Source: a virus
Lineage: Duplodnaviria > Heunggongvirae > Uroviricota > Caudoviricetes
DNA length: 29,429 nucleotides
Reading direction: 5' to 3' (one strand)
IMG/VR virus record: IMGVR_UViG_2698536379_000013
Shown piece by piece: positions 4,616 to 29,429 of this stretch; position 1 is the first letter of the stretch, and the number at the start of each line of letters is the position of its first letter. The translations under genes and the position numbers were made by a program. Below the pieces are notes generated by a model. That model ran no database searches. It worked only from the letters and a program-made list of their open reading frames with translations, and was not told where the DNA came from.

Positions 4616-5190
4616 ACCGGGCCTCCGGTTGTGTCGCCGCCTTTCAGGACGTCAGTATGCTGATGCGCATCAACCACGATCCCGTTAGAACTCATCGCTC
4701 CGCCGCCCTGGGTAACGCCACCATTGATCACCACTTCGCTGTTAATGCGCGTGCGGTCAGCCTCCAGTACAAACTCACTGGTTTTCATGGTGATGTTGTC
4801 AGCGGCCTCAATGACCATTGATTTGATGCCCCTGACATACCAGCGCCCGGTAGTGGGTTCGTATTCAAACCAGCCGCCGTCAGGATGTTCTGTCACGCAG
4901 GCGTCTGCCGACGTCGACGGTGGTGCGAACTGATTCGAATAGACAGCGGGCAGCGCAAAGGCAGTTTCCAGATTGCCGCCCAGACTCAGCAGCACCACCT
5001 GCTCACCTTCCGATGGTCGCCACCATGTGCGGGCATTCCCGGCACGCAGCGTCAGCCAGCTGATCCAGTTGGTTTCAAGCTCGCCCGTTTTCACCCGGCA
5101 AAGCCAGTTTTCCCGGTCCACTTCGGTGACTACACCAGTGCGGATCAGGTTGGTGATAAGGCGCATGATTTCGGTTAGTTGTGCGTTCAT
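4612..5190 (-). CDS. Baseplate spike / assembly protein V (P2 gpV-like)
   Basis: Aligns by eye to recalled P2 gpV from MNAQLTEIMRLITNLIRTG (LIRTGVVTEVD, RTWWRPSEGEQVV). Start set to ATG 5190; the track extension to 5298 is not homologous. Confidence 0.85.
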   Translation of the reverse strand: MNAQLTEIMRLITNLIRTGVVTEVDRENWLCRVKTGELETNWISWLTLRAGNARTWWRPSEGEQVVLLSLGGNLETAFALPAVYSNQFAPPSTSADACVTEHPDGGWFEYEPTTGRWYVRGIKSMVIEAADNITMKTSEFVLEADRTRINSEVVINGGVTQGGGAMSSNGIVVDAHQHTDVLKGGDTTGGPV

Positions 5191-5236
5191 AGGGTTAGGT
5201 TGCACGGACCTTGAATCTATGGCATCAATACGTCCT

Positions 5237-5254
5237 TGTGTGGTAAATGACACA
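5237..5254 (-). promoter_or_regulatory. TGT-N12-ACA dyad, candidate Ogr-type late promoter element upstream of V
   Basis: TGTgtggtaaatgacACA; centre lies 55.5 bp upstream of the V ATG, the same spacing as the dyad upstream of P. The P2 late-promoter dyad consensus is from memory. Confidence 0.45.
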
Positions 5255-5285
5255 AATACAATTCCAATCAAAGAAAGGTAAAAGA

Positions 5286-5816
5286 ATGAGCCATCCAATT
5301 GATTATTACGCTATAGAAGAACACGCAAGAATAATTGAGCAATTATGCTGTTCATCTGAATTTTATTTACAGCGTATATATTCCACACAGAAAGTATATG
5401 ATGGTTCTATAGTAACTGAATTTGAAATGGAGGAGTTATCGTACAACGGATGGTTGGAATATACCATTAGCAACAATCTTATTAGCCTTTGTACAAAACT
5501 ACGAATTCTCCAAGACACTAGTGAACATGAGTGGAACCCAGATTACTCACCTGAGAAAGAAGCATTTGAAGAACATGAAAATATACTTTTTGTTATAGAT
5601 GGTCATGTTAAAGATTCTATACGCGAATGCTGCAATAAAATTATTCACGCATTAAGTTTTGAGTTAACAAAAAAGACCGGCAAAAATGGAATAAAATATT
5701 GGGACGGTTCTATTATTGCTTCTGGGGTTCAAAACAAAAAAAACTGGAAAATTAAAATAGACCTTTTCCCTTTTTGCCAAAGCATAAAAAGTTATTTAAG
5801 TTTATTAAGAGCGTAA
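5286..5816 (+). CDS. Hypothetical protein (AT-rich insert between V and S), function unknown
   Basis: 176 aa from ATG 5286 (MSHPIDYY...), preceded by gaaagg SD-like sequence and a sigma70-like -10 (TACAAT 5257-5262). Opposite strand to the tail operon; visibly AT-rich; no recognisable motif. Confidence 0.6.
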   Translation: MSHPIDYYAIEEHARIIEQLCCSSEFYLQRIYSTQKVYDGSIVTEFEMEELSYNGWLEYTISNNLISLCTKLRILQDTSEHEWNPDYSPEKEAFEEHENILFVIDGHVKDSIRECCNKIIHALSFELTKKTGKNGIKYWDGSIIASGVQNKKNWKIKIDLFPFCQSIKSYLSLLRA

Positions 5817-5821
5817 ACATT

Positions 5822-6274
5822 CTAATTTTTCATCAATAAATACTTTAAAAGTAAATCTCTTACTTCATTTTCAGTATGTTCATTTAAACCCAGCAATTTT
5901 CGGGATGGATACTTAATGACTCCCCCCTTTGGACTGACGCGATCGCGCAGACCGTAGTGATGAACACGGGCAATACGCTGTACCTTACCTTCAAACTGTA
6001 CGCTGGCAGAATCCGCGCTGGCGGCAGTTCTCAGGTATTTTGTGGTGCGCAGCTTTGCAAACATCTGACGTTTGATGCGCCCCTTCTTGCTGCGTGCTGT
6101 TACCCTGCGCGGCTCATAACTGCTGCCATCTGGATTGCGCTGCATCCTGATATTCTGCTGCTGTGTCCGGCGCAGTTCCTGCGCCAGCTGGCGCATCATT
6201 CGGCTTCTTGCGGCTGGTTCCAGATTCGCCAGCAAAGCACTCAGCCAGTCGTCCACCTTCTGCAGTTCAGCCAC
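5822..6274 (-). CDS. Tail completion / virion morphogenesis protein (P2 gpS-like)
   Basis: 150 aa in the conserved position between R and V. Start codon is GTG at 6274, so the start is uncertain. The last ~25 codons lie in AT-rich sequence. Confidence 0.65.
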   Translation of the reverse strand: MAELQKVDDWLSALLANLEPAARSRMMRQLAQELRRTQQQNIRMQRNPDGSSYEPRRVTARSKKGRIKRQMFAKLRTTKYLRTAASADSASVQFEGKVQRIARVHHYGLRDRVSPKGGVIKYPSRKLLGLNEHTENEVRDLLLKYLLMKN

Positions 6275-16777: not shown

Positions 16778-19192
16778 TTAATACAGGTTCCGCCATTTAT
16801 CATCCTCCTGCAGACGCTGGTTCCGATAGAAGATACGCAGGCCTGCTCCTGACGGAATACTGCCGCCGCGAAGGAGTAAATCGACCTCTTTCTCGCTGCC
16901 ATCAAATCCTCTGGACTTCAGTTCATAGACGAGCTGCTGTCGCTGATGATCTGTAATTCGCTGTTTGTAGTCTTTACGCCGTTTCGGTTTAACCAGGCGT
17001 AACCTTGCTGCCAGTTCCCGGCGCTCTTTTTTGCTCATACTGTGCAGGTAATCGTGCAATTCCTTGTCATCCATGCGGGTGATTTCCGTTCTGGTATCCC
17101 CATCAGCTGATTTGTCTTTCCCTTGTTGGTTCAAATTTTCAGCAAGGGGACAGTTATTGCCACGAGTCCAAGGGGCGCAAGCGCCCTGGTCGGCTGCCGC
17201 CTCCTGAACGTCAACGGCCTTACGAACCATTTTCCACTTCACCGCATGAGTGCAGATCTTGCCCTCTGCAATGGGTGACCAGATGCCATAAATACGAATG
17301 CCGTGATCGCCATAGGCGGTCGGCTCTTCGTTGATTTCATAAGCGGTTCTGATCAGGTGATATTTGCGGGGAACCAGTACGCCGCCCTGCTTCATGATGT
17401 AGGTGGCAAAACAACCAGCATCAGCAGCAGCCAGGATTGCATCAAGGCGCGGGTTATCCAGTACCGGCGCACCTGCTTTTTTGTCCCCCTGTTGCCTTGC
17501 CGCCTGACCAGCCAGCAATCGCAGTTCACGGTAAGCCTGACGCCCCGGAATGCCAAAGAAGCGGAATTGCTGAACACGATGCAGAGACGCCCAGGCATTA
17601 ACGTATTCAGCATTATCACGCAGGGATTTCCCCGTTTCCTTGCTGATCTCGCCAGTCAGACCACGCCCGTCAATGTTCTTACTGATGTATTTCGCGATGT
17701 AGCTTGTTGGCGTACCTTTGCGCGGGTTAATCAACTCAGACTTAAAGCGCGGCCCAGTGTTATTGCCCAGCTCCTCGCGGTCTTCACGGATGGCAAACTT
17801 ACGCAGTAATGCAGTGATGGCGCGGCGGTCTTTTTTGCGCATAAAACACAACAGGTGCCAGTGAACTGTACCGTCATGATGCGGCTCAGCCACCCGCACG
17901 CCATACCAGCGCAATCCGGCTTTGTGCATCGCCTTACGAAATGCAGCAAACATGCCGACCAGATAATCACTACTTTGTCTTACCGTCGCATTTGTCCAGG
18001 TTGGGTTGGGCCTGCCGTTATTTAGCGTGGAATGGAAACGTGACGGACAGGTGATGGTGTAGAAAACGGCGCAGTCACCGCGCATTTCCGCGATAAGCTC
18101 CAGACCTTTAACACAGGCCATCATCTCATTGCGGCGATGCGCAGGGTTGCTGCTGCTGGCGTTTACCACATCCTCCATGTCCAGCGTGTCGCCGTCTTCG
18201 TTCACCAGTTCATGAGAACGGAAAAACTCCAGCGACTTACGGCGCTGCTCACGTTTATGCATCACGGCTTCATAGCTGACATAAGGAGATGCTTTTTTGC
18301 TAACCAGGCAGACAGCGCGCAACTGCTCCTCCCGCCATTCGCAACGCATCTTCCATAATTTCCGATACCACCAGTCGGCGCACAACATACGCGCCAGCGA
18401 ACCCGGAATGAGTTCATAGGGCACGGGTTTACGGCGGTTTCTTTTCCGGCGGAGTTGCTCAAACGCAGGTGGGATGACATCCAGACGCAGGGTTTCCGCC
18501 GCCACCCTTTCCCATGTCTTGCGGATTTCTTCTGGCTTAACGTCATCGGTGGCATACAAATCGCCACAAGCTGCATCAAGGCACATGCTCATATGCGCAG
18601 CAACAAGGGTGGACAGGCGTTTCACCTGATCCTGACTCATTTCAGGCAGAATCAGCAGGCCGTCCAGCCCTTCATGGCTTGCCATAAAGCGAAAAGAAGT
18701 GGATAGCTGACTGTCGCGTACATGCTCCAGCCGTTCCAGACATGGCTTAATCGTCTCACGTAAATAGCGGGAATAAGCCTTTGGCCTGCCCTGGCTGCTG
18801 AAGTATTCAATACGTTGCATCAGCGGCTTGCTGATATGGGAAGGCTGGGCGTTGACGTCCGCCAGAATGACCATATCCGGATTAAAACGCTGCTGCTCAT
18901 GCGCCAGCTTTGCCCGACTAATGAGCTTATCCTGTTCCATTTCGCGCTGGACAGGATCACGGGATTCATTAAAGAAATAACGCTCCCAGACCTGATCACT
19001 CAGTGCCTCGCGGCGCAGTTGTTCCTGCTCGTTATCGGCAGCGTACAGAGTGATCAGGTTTGAAAGCGCAGAAACCGGCGCAACTTCCGCCGGGTCCAGA
19101 TAAGGGTTAATGGCCTTTTTCGGGCTGTTCCATGAGAATGCTGCGGCGAACTCGTTAAAGCCGCTGCAGTTGTTCATATCAGCATGGCTCAT
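16778..19192 (-). CDS. Replication initiation endonuclease (P2 gpA-like rolling-circle initiator)
   Basis: Contains the conserved active-site tyrosine motif [13 protein letters not shown] and [11 protein letters not shown]. Start set to ATG 19192, which overlaps the Dam stop (ATGA); the track start at 19219 is TTG. Confidence 0.9.
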
Positions 19193-20046
19193 GCACGCAC
19201 TCCGTACACGACGGAACAATCCACGCCACGCGAAGGATCAAATCCTACCCAGCAGCGCGGCCCGGAAACAGCGATGATTTCTGTTGCAGATTTACTCTCA
19301 CCAGCTGCCACGCCGATGCTGCGTTTTGCCTTGATGTAGTGGTGAGTAAAATTGCGATACAGCGAACGGATCAGGGATGTGTCACTGTTAGAAACAATGA
19401 CCGGATGTCCTTCTGATGACCGATGTTCAAGAACGGATGCCAGGTGATACTGGTCATCTTCAGTGAAGCCGTCAGTGTGATAGCCGGAAAACATACCGTC
19501 ATAAGGCGGATCGCAATACACCACATCCCCCGCCTTCAACATCGCCAGCGTTTCATCAAAGCTGGCGCAGATAAACGTTGCCCGCTGGGCTTTCTCTGCA
19601 AATGCGCGAATTTCTTTTTCAGGGAAATACGGATTTTTATAATTACCGTACGGAATGTTGAAATGCCCGCTCTTGTTATAGCGACATAACCCACGGTAAC
19701 CATGACGATTGAGATACAGGAAATATACCGCTTTCATGAAATCAGTAATTTCAGTGGAGTAATTAAACTCCTGCCTTATGTTGTAATAAGCCACCTCCCT
19801 GTTTGCTTCCTCAAATAAAGCTCTGGCACGAGATATAAACGCCTCGCAATCAGCAGCAACCTTTTTATAGAGGTTGATTAAATCAGGATTAATATCCGCA
19901 ACAAGATAGCTGGGGTAATCCGTCTCCATCATCACAGCACAGGAACCCGCGAAAGGTTCAACCAGTCGCGGGCCAGCAGGAAGATGTTTTTTCAGTTCGG
20001 ACATAATGGCGGTTTTATTTCCCGCCCATTTCAGGATGGTACTCAT
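19189..20046 (-). CDS. dam: DNA adenine methyltransferase (Dam-like, orphan)
   Basis: From ATG 20046 ([11 protein letters not shown]...) with GGAGG SD; FAGSCAV SAM-binding and DPPY catalytic motifs; no adjacent restriction gene. Confidence 0.9.
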
Positions 20047-20270
20047 ACAACACCTCCGTTGTAATGTTTGCCTTTCAGCTCTGCGATTTCCTGACAGGTA
20101 ATGCAAAGCTGCACTCCAGGAATGGCGCGGCGTCGTGCTGGCGGAATTGGCGCTTCACATTCAATACAAAGCACACGAGACACGCCCGGTGTTTTGGCAC
20201 GGGCAGCACGGATATAGCGCTGGCGTTCTTCTTCAACGCGCTGCTGTACGAGATCCATTGCATCAGCCAT
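20043..20270 (-). CDS. TraR/DksA-type C4 zinc-finger protein
   Basis: 75 aa with CIECEAPI...CITCQ Cys4 pattern; stop overlaps the Dam ATG. Confidence 0.7.
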   Translation of the reverse strand: MADAMDLVQQRVEEERQRYIRAARAKTPGVSRVLCIECEAPIPPARRRAIPGVQLCITCQEIAELKGKHYNGGVV

Positions 20271-20503
20271 TAGTGGATCTCCTGCGCTTCGTTCTGGATT
20301 GCTTCAGCAGTCACACGCAGCAGTTCTGCCGCTTCCACGTGGTTTAGCTGACGGGATGAGATATGACACGCCAGGCTATCAAGGCGAGCTGCCATTGCTT
20401 CAGCCCTTGCCCGGCGTTCTTCCAGACGAGCCTCTGTCAGTAAAATATTAAGCCCTGCATCATCCGGTCCGGTTTTAGTCGTGAGGATTTCAATATTACG
20501 CAT
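20270..20503 (-). CDS. Hypothetical early-region protein
   Basis: 77 aa from ATG 20503 with AGGAG SD 8 nt upstream; stop overlaps the next ATG by 1 nt. Confidence 0.55.
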   Translation of the reverse strand: MRNIEILTTKTGPDDAGLNILLTEARLEERRARAEAMAARLDSLACHISSRQLNHVEAAELLRVTAEAIQNEAQEIH

Positions 20504-20570
20504 AATCAATTCTCCTGAATTTAGATAAAGGGATGCCCGGCGGGTTTACGCCATTAATTTCATTAGTTGG

Positions 20571-20912
20571 TTAATTCGGCATGGTTAGCCGTCTGGGAAA
20601 TAAGCTCACCACCGCACGAAAATGATTCATTGCTTTAATCAGCTCCCGCTTTTCGTCAGTGGTCAGCTCATTAATGCTGATGCTATGACGTTCAGCTGGA
20701 ATTTTTGCCATAAAGAATATAGCAGCCAGTGCCCGTTTATTTTGTTCATTATTGATATCCCGTGGATCACGCATATCTTTAATAAACCGCTCAAGCTCTG
20801 ACTCAATATTCAGGCCAAAAACTTTCGCCCTTAATTCCGCAATATGATTAAGTCCATTCAGGCGTTCACCGGGGCTTAATGGAACAGTCGCCGCAGCGCC
20901 ATTAATTGCCAT
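20571..20912 (-). CDS. Hypothetical early-region protein
   Basis: 113 aa, ATG start; in the early operon between the CII-proximal genes and the replication region. Confidence 0.5.
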   Translation of the reverse strand: MAINGAAATVPLSPGERLNGLNHIAELRAKVFGLNIESELERFIKDMRDPRDINNEQNKRALAAIFFMAKIPAERHSISINELTTDEKRELIKAMNHFRAVVSLFPRRLTMPN

Positions 20913-20934
20913 AATTCATATCCCCAAAACGCAA

Positions 20935-21159
20935 CTATCGTTCTTTGTTCTTACGGTAACGTTCAAGAGGAGATACATTTTTTCGTATCGTCTCTTTAAC
21001 CTGCTCTCCCCGTAAAAACGTCCCATCCTTTAGCGTGAAAAAGTAACTGCCATCGCCCGACAACGACGGATAACAACAGAGCAAATCATCTTCAGGTACT
21101 GAATAACTCTCCCCTCTGTAACGAAACTGATAAACCACTTCACTTTCCGCTGCATACAT
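20935..21159 (-). CDS. Hypothetical small protein
   Basis: 74 aa, ATG with GGAG SD 9 nt upstream. Confidence 0.5.
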   Translation of the reverse strand: MYAAESEVVYQFRYRGESYSVPEDDLLCCYPSLSGDGSYFFTLKDGTFLRGEQVKETIRKNVSPLERYRKNKER

Positions 21160-21326
21160 TTTGACTTTCTCCGTTTCCTCGTGGTCAATTCAGACAGCAA
21201 TTCATCTTGTGAATGACATGGATGCCAGCGTTTACCATCCTCACCCATGATCCAGCCGTGACCGTAGTGCATTGCCGGACTTTGTTTTACCAGCAGCGAT
21301 GCAAATGATGGTTCTTTCGTCAGCAT
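21030..21326 (-). CDS. Hypothetical ORF downstream of cII (overlaps the 74-aa ORF; may be a frame artefact)
   Basis: ATG 21326 with GAGGTG SD; N-terminal two-thirds look protein-like, C-terminal part is Cys/Arg-rich and overlaps the neighbouring ORF by 130 nt. Confidence 0.3.
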   Translation of the reverse strand: MLTKEPSFASLLVKQSPAMHYGHGWIMGEDGKRWHPCHSQDELLSELTTRKRRKSKCMQRKVKWFISFVTEGRVIQYLKMICSVVIRRCRAMAVTFSR

Positions 21327-21333
21327 AAGCACC

Positions 21334-21843
21334 TCACAGCAATCCGAATGAAGCACCGAGGCCAGTCACGGTATCAACTGCACTCGCCATCGCAGGGTTA
21401 GCCTGTAAACGGGCCTGCAATGAAACAGCAGCCAGCGCCATCAGTCGTGTTACAGAGTTAATGCTGCTGATAGCATCACGACGACCTGCACTGGTTTTTA
21501 CATCGCCAGATACCGCACCTGCAGCAACACGCCCGATCTCTGCGGTTGCACTCATGACGTAATGCGGCAGTTTCTCTTTTGCTACCTCATTAATCGGTAC
21601 ACATGGCAGGCAGTGAATCTGTGCCAGAAAACCATCTACCAGCGTTGAATCTTCAGTCAGATCGGTAAGCAGCCAGATTTCTGATGCGGTGAGCTGATGC
21701 GGTTGATCTGGGTTGAGTTTGTTTCGCAGTGTCTGAACATTCATTCCTGCACGTTCTGCCAGCTTCGCCATATTGTGACGTAGTGCAAAAGCTCTACAGG
21801 CTTCATCAAAATGCGGATGTTTGGAAATCTTGTAATCAAACAT
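21334..21843 (-). CDS. CII-like lysogeny establishment activator (186 CII-type)
   Basis: 169 aa, ATG start; strongly resembles recalled 186 CII (MFDYKISKHPHFDEACRAFALRHNMAKLAERAGMNVQTLRNKLNP...LVDGFLAQIHCLPC). Confidence 0.8.
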   Translation of the reverse strand: MFDYKISKHPHFDEACRAFALRHNMAKLAERAGMNVQTLRNKLNPDQPHQLTASEIWLLTDLTEDSTLVDGFLAQIHCLPCVPINEVAKEKLPHYVMSATAEIGRVAAGAVSGDVKTSAGRRDAISSINSVTRLMALAAVSLQARLQANPAMASAVDTVTGLGASFGLL

Positions 21844-21875
21844 GCTGCCCCCTTAGAAAGTTCTCATAATTGAAC

Positions 21876-22124
21876 TTAGTCACCAACGATGACATTAAAG
21901 TTGAAATTGGATTGGCCCATGTTTTTCCTGACTTGTTCCTTTTTGTACTCAAGGTAACGTATACATACTCTGTCTTTCGGTTTTTCTTTTCTTTCCAAGA
22001 ATTTAGCGAGTTTTCCATTATGAATCATTTGATATACCGAACCGCGAGAGCGGCCTTCCCATTCCGCGAACTCAGCTGGTGTCGCCATCACTTTTGGTAC
22101 ACGAATTGAAATGTCGTTGCTCAT
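21876..22124 (-). CDS. Apl/Cox-like excisionase-repressor (HTH)
   Basis: From ATG 22124 (MSNDISIRVPKVMATPAEFAEWEGRSRGSVYQMIHNGKL...), divergent from the repressor gene in the 186 apl position. Confidence 0.65.
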   Translation of the reverse strand: MSNDISIRVPKVMATPAEFAEWEGRSRGSVYQMIHNGKLAKFLERKEKPKDRVCIRYLEYKKEQVRKNMGQSNFNFNVIVGD

Positions 22125-22241
22125 AGTGCAGTATCTCTTAGTTTGTAATCGTATCATCTCGTTTTATGTGGTTTGGTTTTGCTTTTCAAACCATGAATGG
22201 ATATTAAGATCTCATTTTATATGCGTCAGGGGGGTTTGATT
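22125..22241. promoter_or_regulatory. Lysis-lysogeny switch intergenic region (apl/cI promoters and operators)
   Basis: 117-bp AT-rich region between divergent apl-like and cI-like genes; candidate plus-strand promoter TTGCTT(22179-22184)-17-TATTAA(22202-22207). Confidence 0.45.
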
Positions 22242-22874
22242 ATGAGTCTAATCAAGGGTGGAAACGATAGTGGGGGGCGTGATGCCATCAACAGGCTGAT
22301 AAAAGCCTACAATTTCAGCTCACGCCAACAACTCTGCGAACACTTAAAAGTATCTAAAAGCACCATGGCAAACAGATACTTAAGAGATAGCTTTCCAGCA
22401 GAGTGGGTAATTCAATGTGCTCTAGAAACCGGGATCTCGCTTCTTTGGTTGGCAACCGGACAGGGTGATATGTATGCAGATAACTGTGACTCAAACATTC
22501 TCAAAAATGATAATGACGTCACAATTAGACCACTTTCTAAAATCGTAGCTCCCAGTATCAAATACACAGAATTAAGAAATGGTGAACTTCAATCATATGA
22601 CGAAATTTTATTAGATAGCAGGTTGGTTGAGGGCGATTCGTCAAACTATCTATTCATACAAACGACAACAGAAAGTTTTATTGTTGATGTATCTGTAAAA
22701 CAGATCAGTAATGGCTCTTGGCTTGTTGATATTGATGGAGTGAAAAGCATCGTAAAAGTAGCTCGAATTCCCGGAAATAAGCTTGTTGTTCATCAGGAAG
22801 AAACAACCTTTGAATGTGCAGTTGATGACGTAGCCGTTGTAGGGCGTGTGGTAAAAGTGATTAAGAGCATCTAA
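22242..22874 (+). CDS. Immunity repressor CI (186 CI-type, no obvious S24 peptidase motif)
   Basis: HTH segment SRQQLCEHLKVSKSTMANRYL; start set to ATG 22242 (alternatives 22197 and 22221); stop immediately precedes the int ATG. Confidence 0.7.
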   Translation: MSLIKGGNDSGGRDAINRLIKAYNFSSRQQLCEHLKVSKSTMANRYLRDSFPAEWVIQCALETGISLLWLATGQGDMYADNCDSNILKNDNDVTIRPLSKIVAPSIKYTELRNGELQSYDEILLDSRLVEGDSSNYLFIQTTTESFIVDVSVKQISNGSWLVDIDGVKSIVKVARIPGNKLVVHQEETTFECAVDDVAVVGRVVKVIKSI

Positions 22875-22876
22875 TA

Positions 22877-23902
22877 ATGACGATCAGAAAACAGCCGAAC
22901 GGAAAGTGGTTGTGTGAATGCTACCCAAACGGGCGAGATGGCAAACGCGTACGTAAACAATTTGCGACAAAAGGCGAAGCCATTGCGTTTGAACGTTTCA
23001 CAATGGAAGAAGTGAACAAAAAACCGTGGCTGGGGGAAAAGGAAGATCGGCGACATTTGTCAGAAGTGATTGAACAATGGTACTCACTTTACGGGCAGAC
23101 GCTTGCTGACCCCAAACGCCTGATGGCGAAACTTAAAATTATCTGTAATGGTCTGGGCGATCCCATCGCTTCAGAACTGACCGCCGGTGATTTTACGAAA
23201 TACCGGGAAGCACGGCTAAAGGGTGAAGTGCGAAATGAAGATGGCGCGCTTATGTCGCCTGTTAAGCCCCGCACGGTAAATCTTGAACAACGCAACCTGT
23301 CATCGGTTTTTGGCACACTGAAAAAGCTGGGACACTGGTCAGCACCAAACCCACTGGCAGGACTTCCTACATTTAAAATTGCTGAAGGTGAGCTGGCCTT
23401 TCTTTCCATGGACGAAATCAAGCGCCTGTTGGATGCCTGCGCAGATTCTCAAAGCCCCAGCCTGCTGATGATTGCAAAAATATGCCTGGCCACCGGAGCA
23501 CGCTGGAGTGAAGCAGAAAATCTGCAGGGACACCAGTTGTCAAAATACCGCATCACATACACCAAGACGAAGGGCAAGAAAAACCGTACCGTGCCAATAT
23601 CTCAGGATCTGTATGACGAACTTCCCAAAAATAGAGGGAAATTATTCACACCATGCAGAAAAGCCTTTGAGCGGGCAGTAAAGCGGGCCGGTATCGAACT
23701 GCCAGAAGGACAATGCACCCACGTGCTACGCCATACATTCGCCAGCCACTTTATGATGAATGGCGGTAATATACTTGTGCTTAAAGAAATTTTAGGCCAT
23801 ACCGATATAAAAATGACCATGATTTATGCTCATTTCGCACCAGAGCATCTTGAAGATGCGGTGACAAAAAATCCTTTAGCCACTCTTTTTTCTACTAATT
23901 AA
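22877..23902 (+). CDS. int: Tyrosine integrase (P2/186-type)
   Basis: 341 aa with C-terminal catalytic region HVLRHTFASHF...LGHTDIKMTMIYAHF; adjacent to the repressor gene and upstream of the att core. Confidence 0.95.
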   Translation: MTIRKQPNGKWLCECYPNGRDGKRVRKQFATKGEAIAFERFTMEEVNKKPWLGEKEDRRHLSEVIEQWYSLYGQTLADPKRLMAKLKIICNGLGDPIASELTAGDFTKYREARLKGEVRNEDGALMSPVKPRTVNLEQRNLSSVFGTLKKLGHWSAPNPLAGLPTFKIAEGELAFLSMDEIKRLLDACADSQSPSLLMIAKICLATGARWSEAENLQGHQLSKYRITYTKTKGKKNRTVPISQDLYDELPKNRGKLFTPCRKAFERAVKRAGIELPEGQCTHVLRHTFASHFMMNGGNILVLKEILGHTDIKMTMIYAHFAPEHLEDAVTKNPLATLFSTN

Positions 23903-23914
23903 AAGGTAATTATT

Positions 23915-24811
23915 ATGACAGAGCTCTACCTTTTAGATCGAAACATAATTGATCTAATGAATAAGCACAACAATTCTTCTAATATCCCAGAACCTAATAG
24001 AATTGATATGCTTAATAAATTAAAAGCATTAGATATCAAAGGAAATACTTTCTCACCTTTACTATCAATAATAGAAGGAAAAACCCATAAAAAACTTGAC
24101 AGTAACGGCAAATTAGAAATCATAAAAACACCTAATAAAAAAATAAGAAAATTAATTATAGAGGATAGTGAAATTGTAAAATCATTTATTAAAGAAGCTA
24201 ACACTGATTATGATTTCCTAACATCCAATGTAAATAAACTATCAAAAATAATATATGAAAAAGAAACTGACAGATTAATAGATAAAAAAACAAAATTCCT
24301 TGATAAGCTACAAGAAAAAATAGGGGAAACAAAGAAAGTAGAACAACGAGAGAATACATATTATGAGTTTAAAGAGATAGTAAACGAGTTTAATGAATTT
24401 AAAAACCAACCGTTTACAATTGTAGCTCTGATGTATATCTTTGGAAGCCAACGAGCTGAGAAGATATTAAAATTTAAAAGTAAAAATTTTTCATCTTATA
24501 ACCCAATTGCTGATTTTAATCATTACAAAACCACTATCCAACTTAGATTTGATGATAGATTAAAAGATAATGCAAACATACATTTTATTTCACTTGATTC
24601 AGATATTGAATTTATACAGCAACTTTTTCATCCTAATAATGCTAAAATTAGTAGTTCAACAAACTACACTAATACTTTAGCTATTGAGTGGACAATTAAT
24701 AAAAATTTTCTACAGAGTGAAATACCGGAAACAAAGGGCGAACTCAACAATCAAGAATTGTTTTACTCATGCTTTCAAGACTTGTATGGGTACGATGCCC
24801 GCGTGTCTTAA
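23915..24811 (+). CDS. Hypothetical protein (AT-rich cargo between int and att); N-terminus resembles a PIN-domain first strand
   Basis: 298 aa, ATG 12 nt after the int stop with AAGG SD. N-terminal MTELYLLDRNIIDLM resembles the h-h-D-T-N-h-h motif that opens PIN nucleases (inference from a single motif). Very AT-rich, Lys/Asn-rich. Confidence 0.6.
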   Translation: MTELYLLDRNIIDLMNKHNNSSNIPEPNRIDMLNKLKALDIKGNTFSPLLSIIEGKTHKKLDSNGKLEIIKTPNKKIRKLIIEDSEIVKSFIKEANTDYDFLTSNVNKLSKIIYEKETDRLIDKKTKFLDKLQEKIGETKKVEQRENTYYEFKEIVNEFNEFKNQPFTIVALMYIFGSQRAEKILKFKSKNFSSYNPIADFNHYKTTIQLRFDDRLKDNANIHFISLDSDIEFIQQLFHPNNAKISSSTNYTNTLAIEWTINKNFLQSEIPETKGELNNQELFYSCFQDLYGYDARVS

Positions 24812-24961: not shown

Positions 24962-25006
24962 ATGTAGGAATTTCGGACGCGGGTTCAACTCCCGCCAGCT
25001 CCACCA
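24962..25006 (+). ncRNA. ssrA: ssrA (tmRNA) 3-prime terminal fragment, about 45 nt: prophage attachment core
   Basis: ATGTAGGAATTTCGGACGCGGGTTCAACTCCCGCCAGCTCCACCA matches the recalled 3-prime end of enterobacterial tmRNA; upstream sequence is unrelated AT-rich DNA, so this is a partial copy. Confidence 0.75.
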
Positions 25007-25042
25007 CTTTTTAGTTGTTTGAAGTACAATGAAGTCTACTAA

Positions 25043-25074
25043 GCCCGCACAGCACAAGCTCTGCGGGCTTTTTT
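25043..25074 (+). terminator. Rho-independent terminator downstream of the ssrA fragment
   Basis: Stem gcccgca/tgcgggc (25043-25049 and 25062-25068) followed by TTTTTT (25069-25074). Confidence 0.6.
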
Positions 25075-25171
25075 ACGTCTATTGTCGTCCAGTGAGAATT
25101 GCTGAGAACTACGAGTTATGGCACCCTGAATGAGACCCACTAAGAAGGGTCCAAAAACCGAGGGTCCCAAA

Positions 25172-26401
25172 ATGGCAAAAATCGCTAAGAAGCTCACTGA
25201 CACTGAAATCAAAAGCACCAAGCCAGCCGACAAAGAAATCAACTTGTTTGACGGAGATGGTTTGATACTACGAATCGCTCCCCTCTCGAAAGGAGGAAAG
25301 AAGAATTGGTATTTCAGGTATGCAGTGCCAGTGAGTAAAAAAAGAACCAAAATGAGCCTTGGGACCTATCCTCACCTTACACTGGCAAGAGCCAGAGCCT
25401 TACGTGATGAATATCTTTCCTTTCTGGCAAATGGTGTTGATCCACAAATCCATAACAACGATAAGGCGAAGGCATTAAAGAGTGCTACTGAGCACACTCT
25501 CCAAGCCGTAGCGCGGAAATGGTTAGATGAGAAGGTAAAGACATCAGGTATCTCACAAGACCATGCAGCAGACATCTGGCGCAGCTTAGAGAGAAATGTC
25601 TTTCCTGGTCTGGGTAATGTCCCTATCAATGAGATCCGGCCTAAGCTCTTAAAACAACACCTTGATCCTATTAAGCAACGAGGCGTATTGGAAACTCTAC
25701 GCCGTATCATTTCACGTCTGAATGAAATCTTCAGGTGGGCAGCTACTGAAGAACTTATTGAGTTCAACCCGGCTGACAACCTTGGTCAAAGATTCAGTAA
25801 ACCAAAAAAGCAAAATATGCCTGCCCTTCCCCCAAGCGAATTGCCAAGGTTTATGGAATCTTTGACGAATGCGTCAATCCGGTTGGAAACACGTATGCTA
25901 ATTGAATGGCAATTGTTGACATGGGTTCGTCCGGGTGAAGCCGTTCGCGCAAGATGGTCTGATATTGATACAACCAACAGCATTTGGAACATTCCTGCTG
26001 ATTTCATGAAAATGAAAAAGCCTCACAAAGTTCCTTTGAGTAAAGAAGCTTTGCGCATCCTTGAATTAATGAAATCAATAAGTGGGCATAGAGAATGGGT
26101 TTTCCCCAGCATTAAAGCGCCTCTTAATCATATGCATGAACAAACAGCCAACGCAGCTATCATCCGAATGGGGTTCGGAGGCGAGCTTGTAGCTCACGGT
26201 ATGCGTTCTATTGCGCGAACAGCGGCAGAGGAGTCTGGTAAATTCAGAGCTGAAGTTCTTGAGGCAGCGCTTGCCCACTCGAAAAAAGATGAAATTATCG
26301 CAGCATACAATCGTGCAGAATATCTGATAGAGCGACAGAGTTTGATGCAATGGTGGAGTGATTACGTTCAAGCTCAAAGATCAAATGCTCTGGTAGCCTA
26401 A
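25172..26401 (+). CDS. intA: Tyrosine integrase, IntA (CP4-57)-like
   Basis: From ATG 25172 (MAKIAKKLTDTEIK...) with GAGGG SD; resembles recalled E. coli IntA (LTDTEIK, DIWRSLERNVFP, ALETLRR, AALAH, MQWW). Confidence 0.85.
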   Translation: MAKIAKKLTDTEIKSTKPADKEINLFDGDGLILRIAPLSKGGKKNWYFRYAVPVSKKRTKMSLGTYPHLTLARARALRDEYLSFLANGVDPQIHNNDKAKALKSATEHTLQAVARKWLDEKVKTSGISQDHAADIWRSLERNVFPGLGNVPINEIRPKLLKQHLDPIKQRGVLETLRRIISRLNEIFRWAATEELIEFNPADNLGQRFSKPKKQNMPALPPSELPRFMESLTNASIRLETRMLIEWQLLTWVRPGEAVRARWSDIDTTNSIWNIPADFMKMKKPHKVPLSKEALRILELMKSISGHREWVFPSIKAPLNHMHEQTANAAIIRMGFGGELVAHGMRSIARTAAEESGKFRAEVLEAALAHSKKDEIIAAYNRAEYLIERQSLMQWWSDYVQAQRSNALVA

Positions 26402-26439
26402 GTATCAGAATAGCTAATATAATCCTGAAGGTAAAGAAA

Positions 26440-26856
26440 ATGGAAACCCTATTCAAAGTTTTTGAAAAATTTAGTTCCAGACCACTTTTTTTTATTTTTT
26501 TCGGACTCTCACTTTGTGAATTTTTTCAGAAACAATCTGTTCTGATGAATCCATCAGCAGATAACATCGCGAAATTATTCGCAGCCATGATATTAGTTGT
26601 TTTTTTTACTTGGGGATTTGAATGGCTAATCTTTAAATTCAATGTAAACCTTGAACCTCATGATCAAGGCGATATTGGACCAACAATTGGAACGGCTGCT
26701 TTAGCTGTATACTTAGTTTATGCCTTTCATTTTCTCAGTGAAAATCCTGAAGCATTAAATTTAAAGTTATTAACTAACTCTGGTTTTATATACAGCACAA
26801 CTCTATTATTATTCTCATTAGAAAGTATGAAGCTTAGAAGACTTAAACAAAAGTAA
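26440..26856 (+). CDS. Hypothetical small multi-pass membrane protein
   Basis: 138 aa with several hydrophobic segments (LFFIFFGLSL, AAMILVVFFTWGF, ALAVYLVYAF, LLLFSL); AT-rich; convergent with the 603-aa ORF. Confidence 0.45.
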   Translation: METLFKVFEKFSSRPLFFIFFGLSLCEFFQKQSVLMNPSADNIAKLFAAMILVVFFTWGFEWLIFKFNVNLEPHDQGDIGPTIGTAALAVYLVYAFHFLSENPEALNLKLLTNSGFIYSTTLLLFSLESMKLRRLKQK

Positions 26857-28654
26857 ACAACATCATTGCGAGATAAATACAAAAGAGGTATGGCGGTAAA
26901 TCACCATACCTAAAACATAATAATTTTGGTAGTATCGGTGATACATAATCCACACAAATATTGGAGCGATACTGAGACGCTATAACCTGATATCTTTCTC
27001 CATAACCAATTCTAAGTTCAGATTTAAGATGCGTTTTTTTCTTTCCCTTTTTCTTTTGGGGTTTATCGTGATGTGAATAATATATCTTTGGTTTCAGATT
27101 AAATCCTTCAACAACTTCCTTCCAAGTTTGAACCGCTAATAAAAATTGAATAGAATTGATGTCAATTAATTTTTTAGCTTTTGTAGTAGTTGAGATCCAT
27201 AAAACCACATCAGTAATTGTCTCTTCAAATTTTACTACTCCTCTTACTATAGTTTGAATTGTGGTTTTTGACTGTTCAATATTATAAATTAGATCATGCG
27301 GTTTATCTGATATCTTTACAGCAATAATCTCTCCATTTTTATAAAGATCTGCAACTTCAACATTGTAGTCCTTGCCATTATCACGTAAGGATGGTATTTT
27401 TTTTAGCTGGCGATCTAGAAGTATATAACCTTTCTCATCAGACATCTTTTCATTAAAATAATATTCTCTATATTCTAATTTGTCTTTAGAAGTTCCTTCT
27501 GCGATTTGTTTTATTTTTTCAGCTTGCCATACTTTGAAGTCGTCTTCCTTAAGAGCATCTTTAACCTCAAATTTTATACTGGCTAAAGAAGTAGACAAAT
27601 ACTTCATAAAAGCAGAGTTAAATCGACTCCATCCTCCCCTCTTAAGGAAGAAGTGCTCGCTGCCCTCGCTATAAGTAATGCTCAATATTTCTTTTAACGA
27701 GGCTGTATGACCACTGTTATTTTCATTAGTTATCTTAACAAAAACTTTATTGACATCTTTTATGTTGTTATTTTTTATGAATTTCTTTACATCTGCTATT
27801 TTTATGTCATTAATTTTATCTGATGATTGAAGATACTTTCCACTCCCCTCAACTTTTGTGTGCAATTTAAAAAATGTCAAAGAATTATTAATTACAATAG
27901 AGGCACCAAAAGATTGAATCTCATCAATAATAACTTTTGCATCATCTGTAATGATCGATTGAAGTAGACAATTATCAAGCTCATCTATCTTTGACTCGTC
28001 AGTGATTTTTTCCGATTTAGGAAATTCGATTTTCTCTTTGGTTGCCAACGAAGAATCAATATCATTGAAAACATCGACTAATGCAGTAGGAGCACCATCC
28101 AAACTTAGCTGAATTGAATCAGAAAAAGTTATATTATTACATCCCCACTTGTCAGTTTCTTTGGCTTTTGTTTTGAGATGCTCGATGGATTCGCCAGGAA
28201 AATATGCTCCTTGAACAAACTGTGAGTATGAGGATGCCTCCTGACTCTTTCCCCCACAAAAGAATCTGCTTTTCTTGAGTAAAATATTTTCATCATTAGC
28301 TATACGCATTGCCACATTCAGCCCAAAGTCTGCTTCAATAAACTTGCTGAGATAAAAATGTGATTTACCAAGACTGATAAGATAGCAATTCTCAGGGTCC
28401 TTTTCTTTAAATCCTATTAGCAGGCCAAAATAGAATATATTATGAGGCTTTTCAATTTCTTCATTGAAGAAATCACTAAAAACATCCCACCACCATACTT
28501 CATTTCCTTTTAATTTATCAGAAAAATAAAATTTGAGTTGATAAGATTGATGTAGAATAGTTTTTTGTTCGACAAGCCCTTCTTTAATGATTTTTTTTGT
28601 CAATTCTGGAAGACTCTTATATGGCATTCTATATATGTTATAGCTGACTGACAT
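26843..28654 (-). CDS. Large hypothetical protein (603 aa), no recognisable catalytic motif
   Basis: Long ATG-initiated ORF with AGAGG SD-like sequence upstream; AT-rich, Lys/Asn/Ile-rich; no Walker A, no CxxxCxxC; the last ~50 codons look like hydrophobic read-through. Confidence 0.65.
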   Translation of the reverse strand: MSVSYNIYRMPYKSLPELTKKIIKEGLVEQKTILHQSYQLKFYFSDKLKGNEVWWWDVFSDFFNEEIEKPHNIFYFGLLIGFKEKDPENCYLISLGKSHFYLSKFIEADFGLNVAMRIANDENILLKKSRFFCGGKSQEASSYSQFVQGAYFPGESIEHLKTKAKETDKWGCNNITFSDSIQLSLDGAPTALVDVFNDIDSSLATKEKIEFPKSEKITDESKIDELDNCLLQSIITDDAKVIIDEIQSFGASIVINNSLTFFKLHTKVEGSGKYLQSSDKINDIKIADVKKFIKNNNIKDVNKVFVKITNENNSGHTASLKEILSITYSEGSEHFFLKRGGWSRFNSAFMKYLSTSLASIKFEVKDALKEDDFKVWQAEKIKQIAEGTSKDKLEYREYYFNEKMSDEKGYILLDRQLKKIPSLRDNGKDYNVEVADLYKNGEIIAVKISDKPHDLIYNIEQSKTTIQTIVRGVVKFEETITDVVLWISTTTKAKKLIDINSIQFLLAVQTWKEVVEGFNLKPKIYYSHHDKPQKKKGKKKTHLKSELRIGYGERYQVIASQYRSNICVDYVSPILPKLLCFRYGDLPPYLFCIYLAMMLFTFV

Positions 28655-28722
28655 TTAATCGCCTCTGAAATATATATTCATACAAGTTAATGTTAAAGTG
28701 AAAAATTTTTAATATACTTAAT

Positions 28723-29400
28723 TTATCGAGCTAAAATACTTAATGAATTTAACAACTGTATATCCAAGGTTTCACTTGAGGGCACTGGTAGTCCGTTCGC
28801 AATGCGATAATTTTTTATTGACTGCCTTGTGGAAGGCCCCATTATGCCGTCAATATTCCCGTTGTAATAATCTTTGTCCAGCAAAGCGAATTGAACCCGC
28901 ATGATTAAGCGCTTACGCTTCTCTGTACCAGAAGTCAGCCCATTACTTGCACGGTTAGCTTCTGTAGTTCCAACAGAATTCGTAGTAGTAGAGTTGTTAT
29001 TGTCGTTAGAACGAAGCGAACGCACAGAGGAAGAGGACGATGAGGGACTTGTTCCTGAACTTGAAGACCCAGATGAACTTGGTGAGCTGTATGTTTTTGG
29101 ATAATAGGGAGTGCTGCCACCATAGTACCCGCCACCTGATGATGAACGGTGAGAACTATGGCTCCGATGGGAGCTATGACTGCGATGCCCTGCAATGTAG
29201 AATGGAACTTCGGTGTTAAGTGGGGCTATCACTAAATCATGTTCATTAAGAGTCATACCAGGCAAATCACTTGCCCATACAGAATTATTGAGTGCCAAAA
29301 ACCCCGGAAGTAGAGCAGCAAAATGAACCGCCCCGGTTTTCCTGGAGAGTGTTTTATCTGTGAACTCAGGCTGCCAGATCATCGTTTCTGATGGAAGCAT
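28723..29400 (-). CDS. Secreted His-Xaa-Ser repeat protein with C-terminal peptidoglycan-binding-like domain (possibly HxsA-like)
   Basis: Signal-peptide-like segment AVHFAALLPGFLALNNSVWA; five tandem His-Xaa-Ser triplets HRSHSSHRSHSSHRS (nt 29143-29187); Ser-rich linker; C-terminal DGIMGPSTRQSIKNYRIANGLPV resembles PG_binding_1. True start may lie upstream of the window. Confidence 0.65.
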   Translation of the reverse strand: MLPSETMIWQPEFTDKTLSRKTGAVHFAALLPGFLALNNSVWASDLPGMTLNEHDLVIAPLNTEVPFYIAGHRSHSSHRSHSSHRSSSGGGYYGGSTPYYPKTYSSPSSSGSSSSGTSPSSSSSSVRSLRSNDNNNSTTTNSVGTTEANRASNGLTSGTEKRKRLIMRVQFALLDKDYYNGNIDGIMGPSTRQSIKNYRIANGLPVPSSETLDIQLLNSLSILAR

Positions 29401-29429
29401 AATAAGCTTTTTCTGCTTCTGCCGGAGGG

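Follow-up and report, generated by a model that had tools for sequence, protein, structure and literature searches.

A DUF6119/TIGR04141 gene beside hxsA on an Escherichia coli ssrA island is a plausible stand-alone candidate for phage defence

The window analysed here, a stretch of 29,429 nucleotides, derives in its second part from an ssrA island of the E. coli O55:H7 type. Its G+C-richer first half (~0.55) is P2-like prophage DNA, whereas GC falls to 0.30–0.36 in the integrase-proximal region. A 3' terminal fragment of ssrA (tmRNA) at 24,964–25,006 on the plus strand, which corresponds by alignment to the final 43 nt of the annotated ssrA in strain DEC5E (L001, 20,001–20,043) and represents an att-site copy, marks the border between the IntA island and a P2/186-like prophage upstream of it. 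ARAGORN, Rfam and tRNA scans found no complete tmRNA or other RNA gene in the window beyond this fragment. An IntA-type tyrosine integrase follows on the plus strand (25,172–26,401 with the PGAP start; the longest ORF begins at 25,130), identified by the Pfam domains Arm-DNA-bind_3, Phage_int_M and Phage_integrase and by NCBIfam PRK09692 (441 bits), and annotated as WP_001358980.1 in three comparison loci (L001–L003). An earlier note on this DNA had placed an IntA-like integrase directly upstream of two ORFs and described the region as integrase-proximal, AT-rich cargo, and we confirm both points. Identity with islands bearing other cargo extends from 24,962 to 27,028. The backbone/cargo junction lies at 27,028, between a small plus-strand ORF and a large minus-strand gene of the DUF6119 family, and more than 500 genomes have this integrase backbone with unrelated cargo.

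The small ORF (26,440–26,856, plus strand) encodes a hydrophobic protein of 138 aa, or possibly 103 aa if translation starts at M36 (26,545); aa 36–138 match phrog_6556 at 1e-68. The earlier note gave its position, size and strand correctly, and its description as a multi-TM protein holds in part: a 19-residue hydropathy scan scored one strong TM segment (aa 42–67), and two or three weaker hydrophobic stretches can be seen by eye. With a pN/pS of ~0.06–0.10 (against comparison loci L004 and L066), it is a genuine gene and evolves under purifying selection. Of 5426 E. coli genomes, 585 have it together with the integrase, most of them next to other cargo, and 29 have the DUF6119 allele of the window. 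All three inspected islands carrying the backbone have the small ORF followed by a different two-gene cargo, and of the 49 DUF6119 loci, three near-identical islands contain the small ORF–DUF6119 pair and the other 46 lack it. We conclude that the small ORF belongs to the integrase backbone and is not a partner of DUF6119. The pairing implied in the earlier note, which had proposed a look at co-occurrence in other genomes, is not supported: the pair is not conserved outside near-identical islands.

The large ORF occupies 26,843–28,654 on the minus strand and, as previously described, converges with the small one. The two overlap by 14 nt, which is the case only because of a frameshift in the large ORF, whose coding body proper (aa 1–540) spans 27,035–28,654 (minus strand) and comprises two N-terminal alpha/beta regions and a C-terminal PD-(D/E)xK nuclease-like domain. 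The protein had been considered impossible to assign to a known family and free of recognisable motifs. Neither a Walker A nor a CxxxCxxC motif was found, but the wider claim is true by eye only, as profiles place the protein: PF19614 (DUF6119) matches at 95.1 bits (cut-off 27, E = 5.1e-27, aa 38–455) and TIGR04141 at 76.6 bits (cut-off 35, aa 37–470). Alignment to the canonical subfamily with hhalign is full-length (473 columns, probability 96.8%, E = 2e-10). By these profile matches the protein is a clear DUF6119/TIGR04141 member. The family is rare and of a single fixed architecture: in 1.84 billion proteins it has 541 cluster representatives, each ~500–560 aa long and none of them a fusion. 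The gene has a dN/dS of 0.06–0.13 and is under purifying selection. In PADLOC-DB v2.0.0, neither the 603-aa ORF nor the small ORF had a match at E ≤ 0.1, so that the run of a defence annotator, which the earlier note had proposed, bears out that the large protein fits no model in that database. Nothing relevant turned up in the literature under the names DUF6119, TIGR04141, PF19614 or "sporadically distributed protein", or under four RefSeq protein accessions. Matches in PHROGs are explained by flanking island DNA deposited inside phage records. We also considered YfjL of E. coli K-12 (CP4-57, also an ssrA/IntA island) as a family member, wrongly: YfjL is AbpA (Cap4_nuclease plus HamA) and shows no similarity.

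Although a 603-aa ORF exists at this position, as the earlier note stated, base-by-base comparison with other strains indicates that this length is a frameshift artefact. A homopolymer at 27,034–27,040 (minus strand) is A7 in the window and A8 in L002 and L004; RefSeq lists the A8 form as WP_001718712.1. Through this 1-nt deletion (a -1 frameshift) the native stop at 27,024–27,026 is lost and the last three native codons are exchanged for 63 out-of-frame codons, turning a 543-aa protein into one of 603 aa. The intact protein of L004 has 543 aa and ends KKKGKKKNVS-stop, and 156 homologues of ~530 aa range in length from 527 to 549 aa. The out-of-frame tail (26,843–27,033, minus strand) consists of DNA from the island backbone, in which the 3' end of a displaced cargo gene survives as a fossil: the tail shows homology to the C-terminal end of the 583-aa "response regulator receiver domain" protein in L066, and phrog_30547 matches at aa 540–576 of the 603-aa ORF. 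Within the tail, downstream of the native DUF6119 stop, lies an intrinsic-terminator-like hairpin with a T-run (26,886–26,911, minus strand; a 10-bp stem with five GC pairs, then CTTTTGTATT). The homologue lengths, the position of this terminator and the foreign origin of the tail led us to reject the long form (594/603 aa) as native. The window copy keeps its 540 core residues complete, the conserved ones included, and the residues lost are the end of a variable, lysine-rich tail; the 63 foreign residues, hydrophobic at their end, may disturb folding or localisation. PGAP annotates the A7 form as intact in DEC5E, and RefSeq calls the native A8 alleles "frameshifted" and the A7 allele intact, which appears to be reversed. 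The locus is a clean case of ssrA-island cargo replacement, in which the end of the displaced gene remains as a visible fossil.

Immediately upstream of DUF6119 on the same strand is hxsA (28,723–29,324, minus strand), the effector gene of the HXS anti-phage system, here without its first five codons (TIGR03979 HxsA, 151.9 bits, and PG_binding_1). The range singled out in the earlier note (26,402–28,722) ends just before this most informative neighbour. The hxsA ORF runs on to 29,400 into the end of an IS3-family element (29,325–29,429) that interrupts the HXS operon; DEC5E, with an annotated IS3 transposase, has this end unchanged, and the IS of L065 is 98% identical to it. The truncated hxsA is all of HXS that the window contains, and hxsC, hxsB and hxsD are absent in DEC5E, the one strain identical across the hxsA–IS3 junction. 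The 68-nt spacer between hxsA and DUF6119 contains the best hit of a consensus scan, a sigma-70 promoter-like site (28,669–28,696, minus strand; TTAACA-16-TATATT, 10 of 12, a consensus match only), suggesting that DUF6119 may be transcribed separately. Experiments have established HXS, described in 2026, as a defence system of four genes (HxsA/B/C/D) that works in MG1655 with its four genes alone and fails against T4 and P1 (PMC13128918). The DUF6119 protein matches no Hxs model (HxsA with HxS repeats and PG-binding domain, the rSAM proteins HxsB and HxsC, or HxsD).

The order hxsD-B-C-A-DUF6119, on one strand and with gaps of 18–68 nt, was found at 10 of the 49 species-level loci, including those of Dryocola and Photorhabdus, where DUF6119 identity is only 42%. 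A DUF6119 allele without BLASTP-detectable similarity occupies the same post-hxsA position in E. coli p10A and AR_0128, the AR_0128 protein being WP_000694697.1 of the canonical form, and also in Enterobacter; the order recurs with three divergent DUF6119 lineages. In a reading of 24 contigs for one common HxsC, DUF6119 was present in all five places displayed. Among E. coli genomes, ~100 have one or other of these DUF6119 alleles and 154 have HXS; these are counts set side by side, with adjacency confirmed in examples, and the non-prophage HXS loci among those examples all have a DUF6119 companion. P2-borne HXS lacks it in three of three examples, as do the HXS operons of Providencia and Marinobacter, and in K. 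pneumoniae the equivalent slot directly downstream of hxsA holds Gabija. We rejected DUF6119 as an obligate HXS component, since the P2-borne, Providencia and Marinobacter operons do without it and the four genes suffice.

Elsewhere DUF6119 is found with restriction systems. It lies between the genes of type III Mod and Res at three loci in three phyla, with gaps of 4–5 nt, after HsdS and HsdR at two and with a type ISP/IIG system at one; in Vibrio, Mrr and type I restriction-modification (RM) genes adjoin it. The genomic company of the protein consists overwhelmingly of defence-related genes, namely HXS, type I and type III RM, Mrr, SIR2 and toxin–antitoxin genes. Many members are nevertheless solitary in unremarkable surroundings, and restriction-type genes occur at only ~6 of 39 non-HXS loci (121 neighbours). 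Enterobacterales members are located on integrative mobilisable islands and adjoin serine recombinase, ParB/RepB and relaxase genes; these recombinase/relaxase modules vary between islands, whereas the position of DUF6119 tracks hxsA. At some chromosomal sites none of the adjacent genes was recognised as a mobility gene.

To what kind of protein DUF6119 belongs is suggested by its C-terminal domain (~aa 395–530, nt ~27,065–27,472), which has the alpha-beta-beta-beta-alpha-beta core of restriction endonucleases and shows fold similarities that include Bse634I, Cfr10I, McrC, Card1, Can2 and Cas4. Full-length Foldseek comparison with the PDB gave no significant match, nor did the N-terminal 360 residues, and a sequence-profile search of PDB chains returned nothing below E = 0.17. 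Within the window-type subfamily E397, D414, E433, D436, V446-K447 and Q461 are invariant, and they align to the invariant E372, D390, E404, D407, V418-K419 and Q433 of the canonical subfamily. Besides the invariant D436 and K447 there are the conserved E397, E433 and E442, and the position two before K holds A, S or H. The predicted catalytic motif is atypical, with (A/S/H)-V-K where the acid of (D/E)xK is expected. Catalysis would need a relocated acid, which E397, E433 or E442 could supply; relocated catalytic acids are a feature of Cfr10I-type enzymes. A simple hydropathy scan detected no strongly hydrophobic N-terminal segment, which points to a cytoplasmic location.

A nuclease-like C-terminal domain and a usual place after HXS make DUF6119 a credible candidate phage-defence gene. 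We lean, by a small measure, towards an autonomous gene acting against phages or mobile DNA through a predicted nuclease and travelling in defence islands, a plausible stand-alone candidate and not part of a two-gene system; nuclease activity, defence function and autonomy are what we infer for it. Recognition of a nucleic-acid or infection cue, by sensing or binding, would fall to the N-terminal two-thirds, and cutting of DNA to the C-terminal domain by means of E397, D436 and K447, with E433/E442 and Q461. In Enterobacterales the gene typically lies right after hxsD-B-C-A on integrative mobilisable islands, and in other phyla within type I and type III RM operons. The suggestion of the earlier note that this is single-gene anti-phage cargo is strengthened by the defence-related company and by Gabija in the same slot in K. 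pneumoniae, which fits an autonomous single-gene defence module; the defence role itself stays at the level of a prediction.

Two alternatives concern this locus in particular. The genes adjacent and convergent in the AT-rich stretch after the integrase could form a two-gene system, for example a sensor or nuclease (the 603-aa protein) with a membrane effector (the small protein). The co-occurrence data already refute this, leaving it a vanishingly small probability: the small ORF is far more widespread than the DUF6119 allele (585 versus 29 genomes), other two-gene cargo follows it in the three inspected islands, 46 of 49 DUF6119 loci lack it, the junction at 27,028 separates the two genes and their overlap is a product of the frameshift alone. 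The window copy could also be a non-functional remnant, a possibility that we take seriously while thinking the opposite rather more probable. With hxsA cut by IS3 and the maturase genes gone in DEC5E (hxsCBD deleted), the copy sits in a decaying island and may be impaired; IS hits at this locus recur in other strains, and the 3' frameshift appends 63 foreign residues. Yet the 540 core residues and all conserved residues are intact, the frameshift alters only the last three residues of the variable, lysine-rich tail, PGAP calls the A7 form intact in DEC5E, and the A7/A8 difference could be a homopolymer sequencing error.

Other alternatives concern the family as a whole. DUF6119 might be non-autonomous: as a guard or back-up effector it would be tied to a front-line barrier against DNA, either HXS or type I/III RM, as the anticodon nuclease PrrC is to EcoprrI, and would switch on once DNA passes the barrier or a phage inhibits it. 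Tight same-strand arrangement with hxsA in three very divergent lineages, insertion between mod and res in three phyla and location directly after hsdR at two loci speak for such coupling, and the failure of HXS against T4 and P1 leaves room for a second defence layer (PMC13128918). We nonetheless consider it unlikely, given the sufficiency of the four HXS genes in MG1655, the P2-borne, Providencia and Marinobacter operons without DUF6119, the many solitary members and the promoter-like site in the hxsA–DUF6119 spacer. A bolder version, to which we give a somewhat lower chance, is that DUF6119 proteins are a new "second-line" nuclease class linked to barriers that act at DNA entry or by restriction. 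Such proteins would stay silent behind HXS or type I/III RM until the barrier is passed or phage-inhibited, and then fire at the invading DNA or at the cell; such a role would explain both the post-hxsA position in the three divergent lineages and the distant members between mod and res. Service to the mobile element itself (island maintenance, exclusion of competing elements, or a nuclease processing excision or transfer) is suggested by the serine recombinase, ParB/RepB and relaxase genes next door on Enterobacterales islands. It appears more improbable still, because DUF6119 is also found inside RM operons and at chromosomal sites without adjacent mobility genes, and follows hxsA and not the varying recombinase/relaxase modules, and because over 500 genomes have unrelated cargo on the integrase backbone.

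If the autonomous defence reading is true, DUF6119/TIGR04141 would be a new phage-defence family for which PADLOC-DB v2.0.0 has no model. By count, roughly two-thirds as many E. coli genomes have one of these DUF6119 alleles as have HXS. The gene would also be a fifth, overlooked companion to HXS, and would bear on the pairing of a periplasmic DNA-entry block with a cytoplasmic nuclease layer.

Among described proteins, the window protein agrees in length and single-domain architecture with DUF6119 (PF19614)/TIGR04141, the "sporadically distributed protein" family. It differs by its frameshifted 3' end and is a member of a divergent subfamily, matching the Pfam model at only 5e-27 over profile positions 40–433; for the alleles that follow other E. 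coli HXS operons the match is full-length and reaches 1e-125. HXS, its immediate upstream neighbour on the same strand, is likewise horizontally mobile defence cargo, but acts in the periplasm, while DUF6119 is presumably cytoplasmic and falls outside the four defined components. Gabija (GajA/GajB) shares the post-hxsA position and is a nuclease-based defence module, with an unrelated two-gene architecture in which a UvrD helicase joins an ATPase and OLD-type TOPRIM nuclease. PrrC and RloC, which combine an ABC-ATPase with an anticodon nuclease, are embedded in type I RM operons, and distant DUF6119 members likewise lie within or directly after type I/III RM operons; this is an analogy only, with no sequence or fold relationship. 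A further comparison is with HamA (Hachiman)/Cap4-type and other PD-(D/E)xK defence nucleases and with the CdiA-CT EC869 DNase. DUF6119 shares with them conserved acidic and lysine residues and, as for the HamA/Cap4-type nucleases, residence in defence islands, although its sequence has no detectable similarity to E. coli AbpA/YfjL. Unlike Hachiman and AbpAB, it lacks a dedicated partner helicase, the combination of a HamA (PF08878)/Cap4 domain and an adjacent helicase being absent, and where PD-(D/E)xK defence nucleases have D...E-x-K, DUF6119 has D...(A/S/H)-V-K.

The 603-aa ORF at 26843–28654 (minus strand), which an earlier note had considered unassignable by eye to any known family, matches DUF6119 (PF19614, 95 bits) and TIGR04141 ("sporadically distributed protein", 76.6 bits) and is therefore a member of a catalogued family. 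No model in PADLOC-DB v2.0.0 matched it, a sequence search of solved structures returned no match, and no paper treating the family in a functional sense was found in the literature. The family has few members: among 1.84 billion cluster representatives, a full HMMER scan recovered 541 at E ≤ 1e-3, which are ~500–560 aa long apart from shorter fragment-like entries, and an extra fused domain was found in 0 of the 541. K-12 YfjL, considered as a member, was rejected, as it is AbpA (Cap4_nuclease + HamA). The window's allele is carried by 29 of 5426 complete E. coli genomes, and dN/dS values of 0.06–0.13 against orthologues indicate that the gene is kept by selection.

The genomic setting described earlier was confirmed by ORF listing, base composition and integrase profiles. 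A 138-aa ORF (26440–26856, plus strand) and the 603-aa ORF are convergent, overlap by 14 nt and follow an IntA-type tyrosine integrase (25130/25172–26401, plus strand). GC is 0.30–0.36 around them; the first half of the window, P2-like prophage DNA, is richer in G+C at ~0.55. Positions 24964–29429 are ~100% identical to the ssrA island of E. coli O55:H7 DEC5E, with one differing base (28653), and the islands of other O55:H7 and atypical O157 strains are near-identical. Alignment identified the last 43 nt of ssrA at 24964–25006 (plus strand); RNA-gene scans found no full tmRNA within the window, the complete gene falling outside it. Only this 43-nt 3′ fragment separates the IntA island from an upstream P2/186-like prophage (at least 17000–23878 by alignment, with replication endonuclease, CI/CII and integrase), so that two elements lie in tandem at ssrA. 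Between the prophage integrase (22877–23902) and the ssrA att fragment we also observed a 298-aa ORF (23915–24811, plus strand; GC ~0.25–0.34) that has no credible match in Pfam, NCBIfam, PADLOC or PHROGs and over which the P2-like prophages of other E. coli that match best do not extend; the ORF is a candidate for defence cargo or a prophage moron. A sharp AT-rich dip at 5001–6000 (GC 0.34–0.43), amid the 55% GC upstream element, may be a further cargo insertion.

The 603-aa length proved to be an artefact. Base-by-base comparison revealed A7 at 27034–27040 in the window vs A8 in O55:H7 strains USDA5905 and CB9615, the sole within-gene difference from either, and the same indel separates an ETEC strain from the window. 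The A8 allele encodes 543 aa, ending ...KKKGKKKN(A/V)S* with its stop at 27024–27026; the A7 allele replaces the last three residues with 63 others. We conclude that the 543-aa form is native, because homologues in Pantoea, Proteus, Pectobacterium, Raoultella, Klebsiella, Pseudomonas, Acinetobacter and others (527–549 aa) end at the same place, a terminator-like hairpin (26886–26911) falls within the extension, and 24962–27028 is island backbone, 97% identical to islands bearing entirely different cargo. In addition, the extension (…LKSELRIGYGERYQVIASQYRSNICVDYVSPILP…) shares homology with the C-terminal end of the other islands' cargo protein (…LKSQLRTGYAERYQAIASQYSSRIGVDYVSMMLP*), which also accounts for a phrog_30547 match at aa 540–576. 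The ORF is thus 540 real codons followed by a frameshift into a displaced gene's fossil 3′ end, with read-through of the terminator. RefSeq/PGAP flags A8 alleles in two other strains (L002 13880–15692, L003 13873–15685) as "frameshifted" pseudogenes and gives the DEC5E A7 allele (L001 21880–23664) as an intact 594-aa protein; judging by how long the homologues are and by the tail's foreign source, these labels appear to be reversed. At 28653 the longest ORF starts with ATG in the window vs ACG in DEC5E, and PGAP accordingly places the DEC5E start at M10. Of the two candidate starts, M1 and M10, homologues align from residue 1.

The neighbouring small ORF is a real gene (pN/pS ~0.06–0.10; phrog_6556 match over aa 36–138 at 1e-68), and the proposed pairing of this membrane protein with the 603-aa protein did not hold. 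The small ORF is carried by 585 E. coli genomes, in every case behind the integrase found in the window. In all three islands inspected (L065, L066, L067), drawn from ~555 other E. coli genomes with the integrase and small-ORF backbone, it is followed by a different two-gene cargo (L066 8489–11957; L065 7385–10979): a "response regulator receiver domain" protein (~583 aa) and an ATP-binding, histidine-kinase-like protein (~572–614 aa). This cargo, often broken by IS elements, could be a pair of defence genes, and the fossil of its 3′ end persists downstream of the window's DUF6119 gene. Conversely, the small ORF is present at 3 of 49 species-level DUF6119 loci, all three near-identical islands, and the backbone/cargo junction (27028) falls between the two genes. 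Together, these observations show that the pair is not a unit. The arrangement reported earlier was real, but the protein was given the wrong size (it is natively 543 aa) and the wrong partner, the small ORF belonging to the integrase backbone.

The recurrent neighbour is HXS. [quoted passage not shown] HXS, published in 2026, comprises four genes and prevents the entry of phage DNA; its effector, HxsA, acts in the periplasm and is matured by the two radical-SAM enzymes. None of the four genes is dispensable, and the paper mentions no fifth (PMC13128918). In the window, an IS3-family element (29325–29429; DEC5E L001 24403–25616) cuts hxsA at 29324/29325, five codons in, replacing the first five residues, and DEC5E is the only strain identical across this junction. 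There, ypjA directly follows IS3; the deletion takes in hxsC, hxsB, hxsD and the distal island with its ABC-3C system and relaxase. The window reaches 105 nt into IS3 and the loss of hxsC/B/D is read from DEC5E; if it holds in the window's source strain, HXS is dead there, since the published genetics needs all four genes. The island is decaying, and its DUF6119 gene keeps all 540 core residues with the foreign tail added. In other E. coli strains (H42, H48, H71, H81, H83), too, IS elements have repeatedly inserted into hxsB/hxsC or DUF6119.

The five-gene order was found at 10 of the 49 loci, including Dryocola and Photorhabdus, whose DUF6119 proteins are only 42% identical. HXS is present in 154 E. 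coli genomes vs ~100 with one of these DUF6119 alleles, adjacency being checked in examples. A canonical-type DUF6119 lies 18–20 nt after hxsA in the 72%-identity and part of the 96%-identity E. coli HXS classes (allele in 72 genomes); Enterobacter hormaechei likewise has DUF6119 after hxsA, and a common Enterobacteriaceae HxsC (24 contigs read) was in this arrangement at each of the five places shown. There are exceptions: the ~92%-identity class, at the D-ogr hotspot of P2-like prophages, had four genes only in 3/3 examples, and the Providencia and Marinobacter operons lack DUF6119. At its downstream end the Marinobacter operon (L080 6694–8312) additionally encodes a PF27798 "His-Xaa-Ser_sys" protein and a CCP_MauG di-haem peroxidase, with a GmrSD_C protein coming next, which suggests lineage-specific extensions beyond the four-gene description. 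Some ssrA-island variants carry more defence-like cargo past HXS, namely an ABC-three-component system with an AAA ATPase (L002 19835–23988), a nucleotide-binding-domain protein pair (L004 17954–20001) and a SIR2_2 protein (L081 134–1702); all adjoin a relaxase, making these mobilisable defence islands.

The AlphaFold2 model of the DUF6119 protein (38-sequence alignment; pLDDT 81.8, pTM 0.77) places its conserved residues consistently with a predicted nuclease-like fold of the restriction-endonuclease type: E397 at a helix start, D436 before a short strand, V446-K447 in the next strand and Q461 in the helix after that. BLASTP detected no similarity between window-type and canonical subfamilies; profile–profile alignment linked them (probability 96.8%, 473 columns), matching these residues to the invariant canonical E372, D407, V418-K419 and Q433. 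Two positions before the conserved lysine stands A, S or H, not D/E. Cfr10I-type enzymes use an S-x-K variant of the catalytic motif, which A/S/H-x-K resembles, and by this analogy catalytic competence is plausible. Hydropathy showed no strongly hydrophobic N-terminal segment, from which we infer a cytoplasmic protein.

A defence role, first proposed from gene position, remains a reasonable inference and now has firmer grounds. The evidence best fits a stand-alone gene of defence islands with a predicted C-terminal nuclease, which commonly sits beside HXS and is sometimes spliced into restriction-modification (RM) operons. Distant members (25–31% identity) are embedded in such operons: type III Mod-DUF6119-Res with 4–5 nt gaps (Candidatus Saccharicenans, Paceibacterota and Zixiibacteriota MAGs), HsdS-HsdR-DUF6119 (Legionella, Thermobacillus), or with a type ISP/IIG enzyme (Caproicibacter). 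Vibrio members adjoin Mrr and type I RM. A Marinomonas member lies amid ParE/ParD pairs, and further members are solitary. Among 121 neighbours at 39 non-HXS loci, the commonest families were DEAD, SWI2/SNF2, ResIII, DNA methylase and integrase, none of them at more than a handful of loci. Housekeeping of the mobile element is less likely, because DUF6119 tracks hxsA and RM genes, not recombinase or relaxase modules.

A "second-line" function coupled to HXS or RM is still a live alternative: the place right after hxsA persists across three deeply divergent DUF6119 lineages, and insertions occur between mod and res. Autonomy is nevertheless favoured by the solitary copies, by a promoter-like site in the hxsA-DUF6119 spacer and by Gabija filling the same slot. 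The link to HXS is unreported and easy to test, and is the chief source of interest here. In K. pneumoniae, a Gabija system (GajA with AAA_15/AAA_21 and OLD-type TOPRIM; GajB UvrD helicase) follows hxsA on the same strand after a gap of 90 nt (L076 4033–7075), in the position held by DUF6119 in E. coli and Enterobacter.
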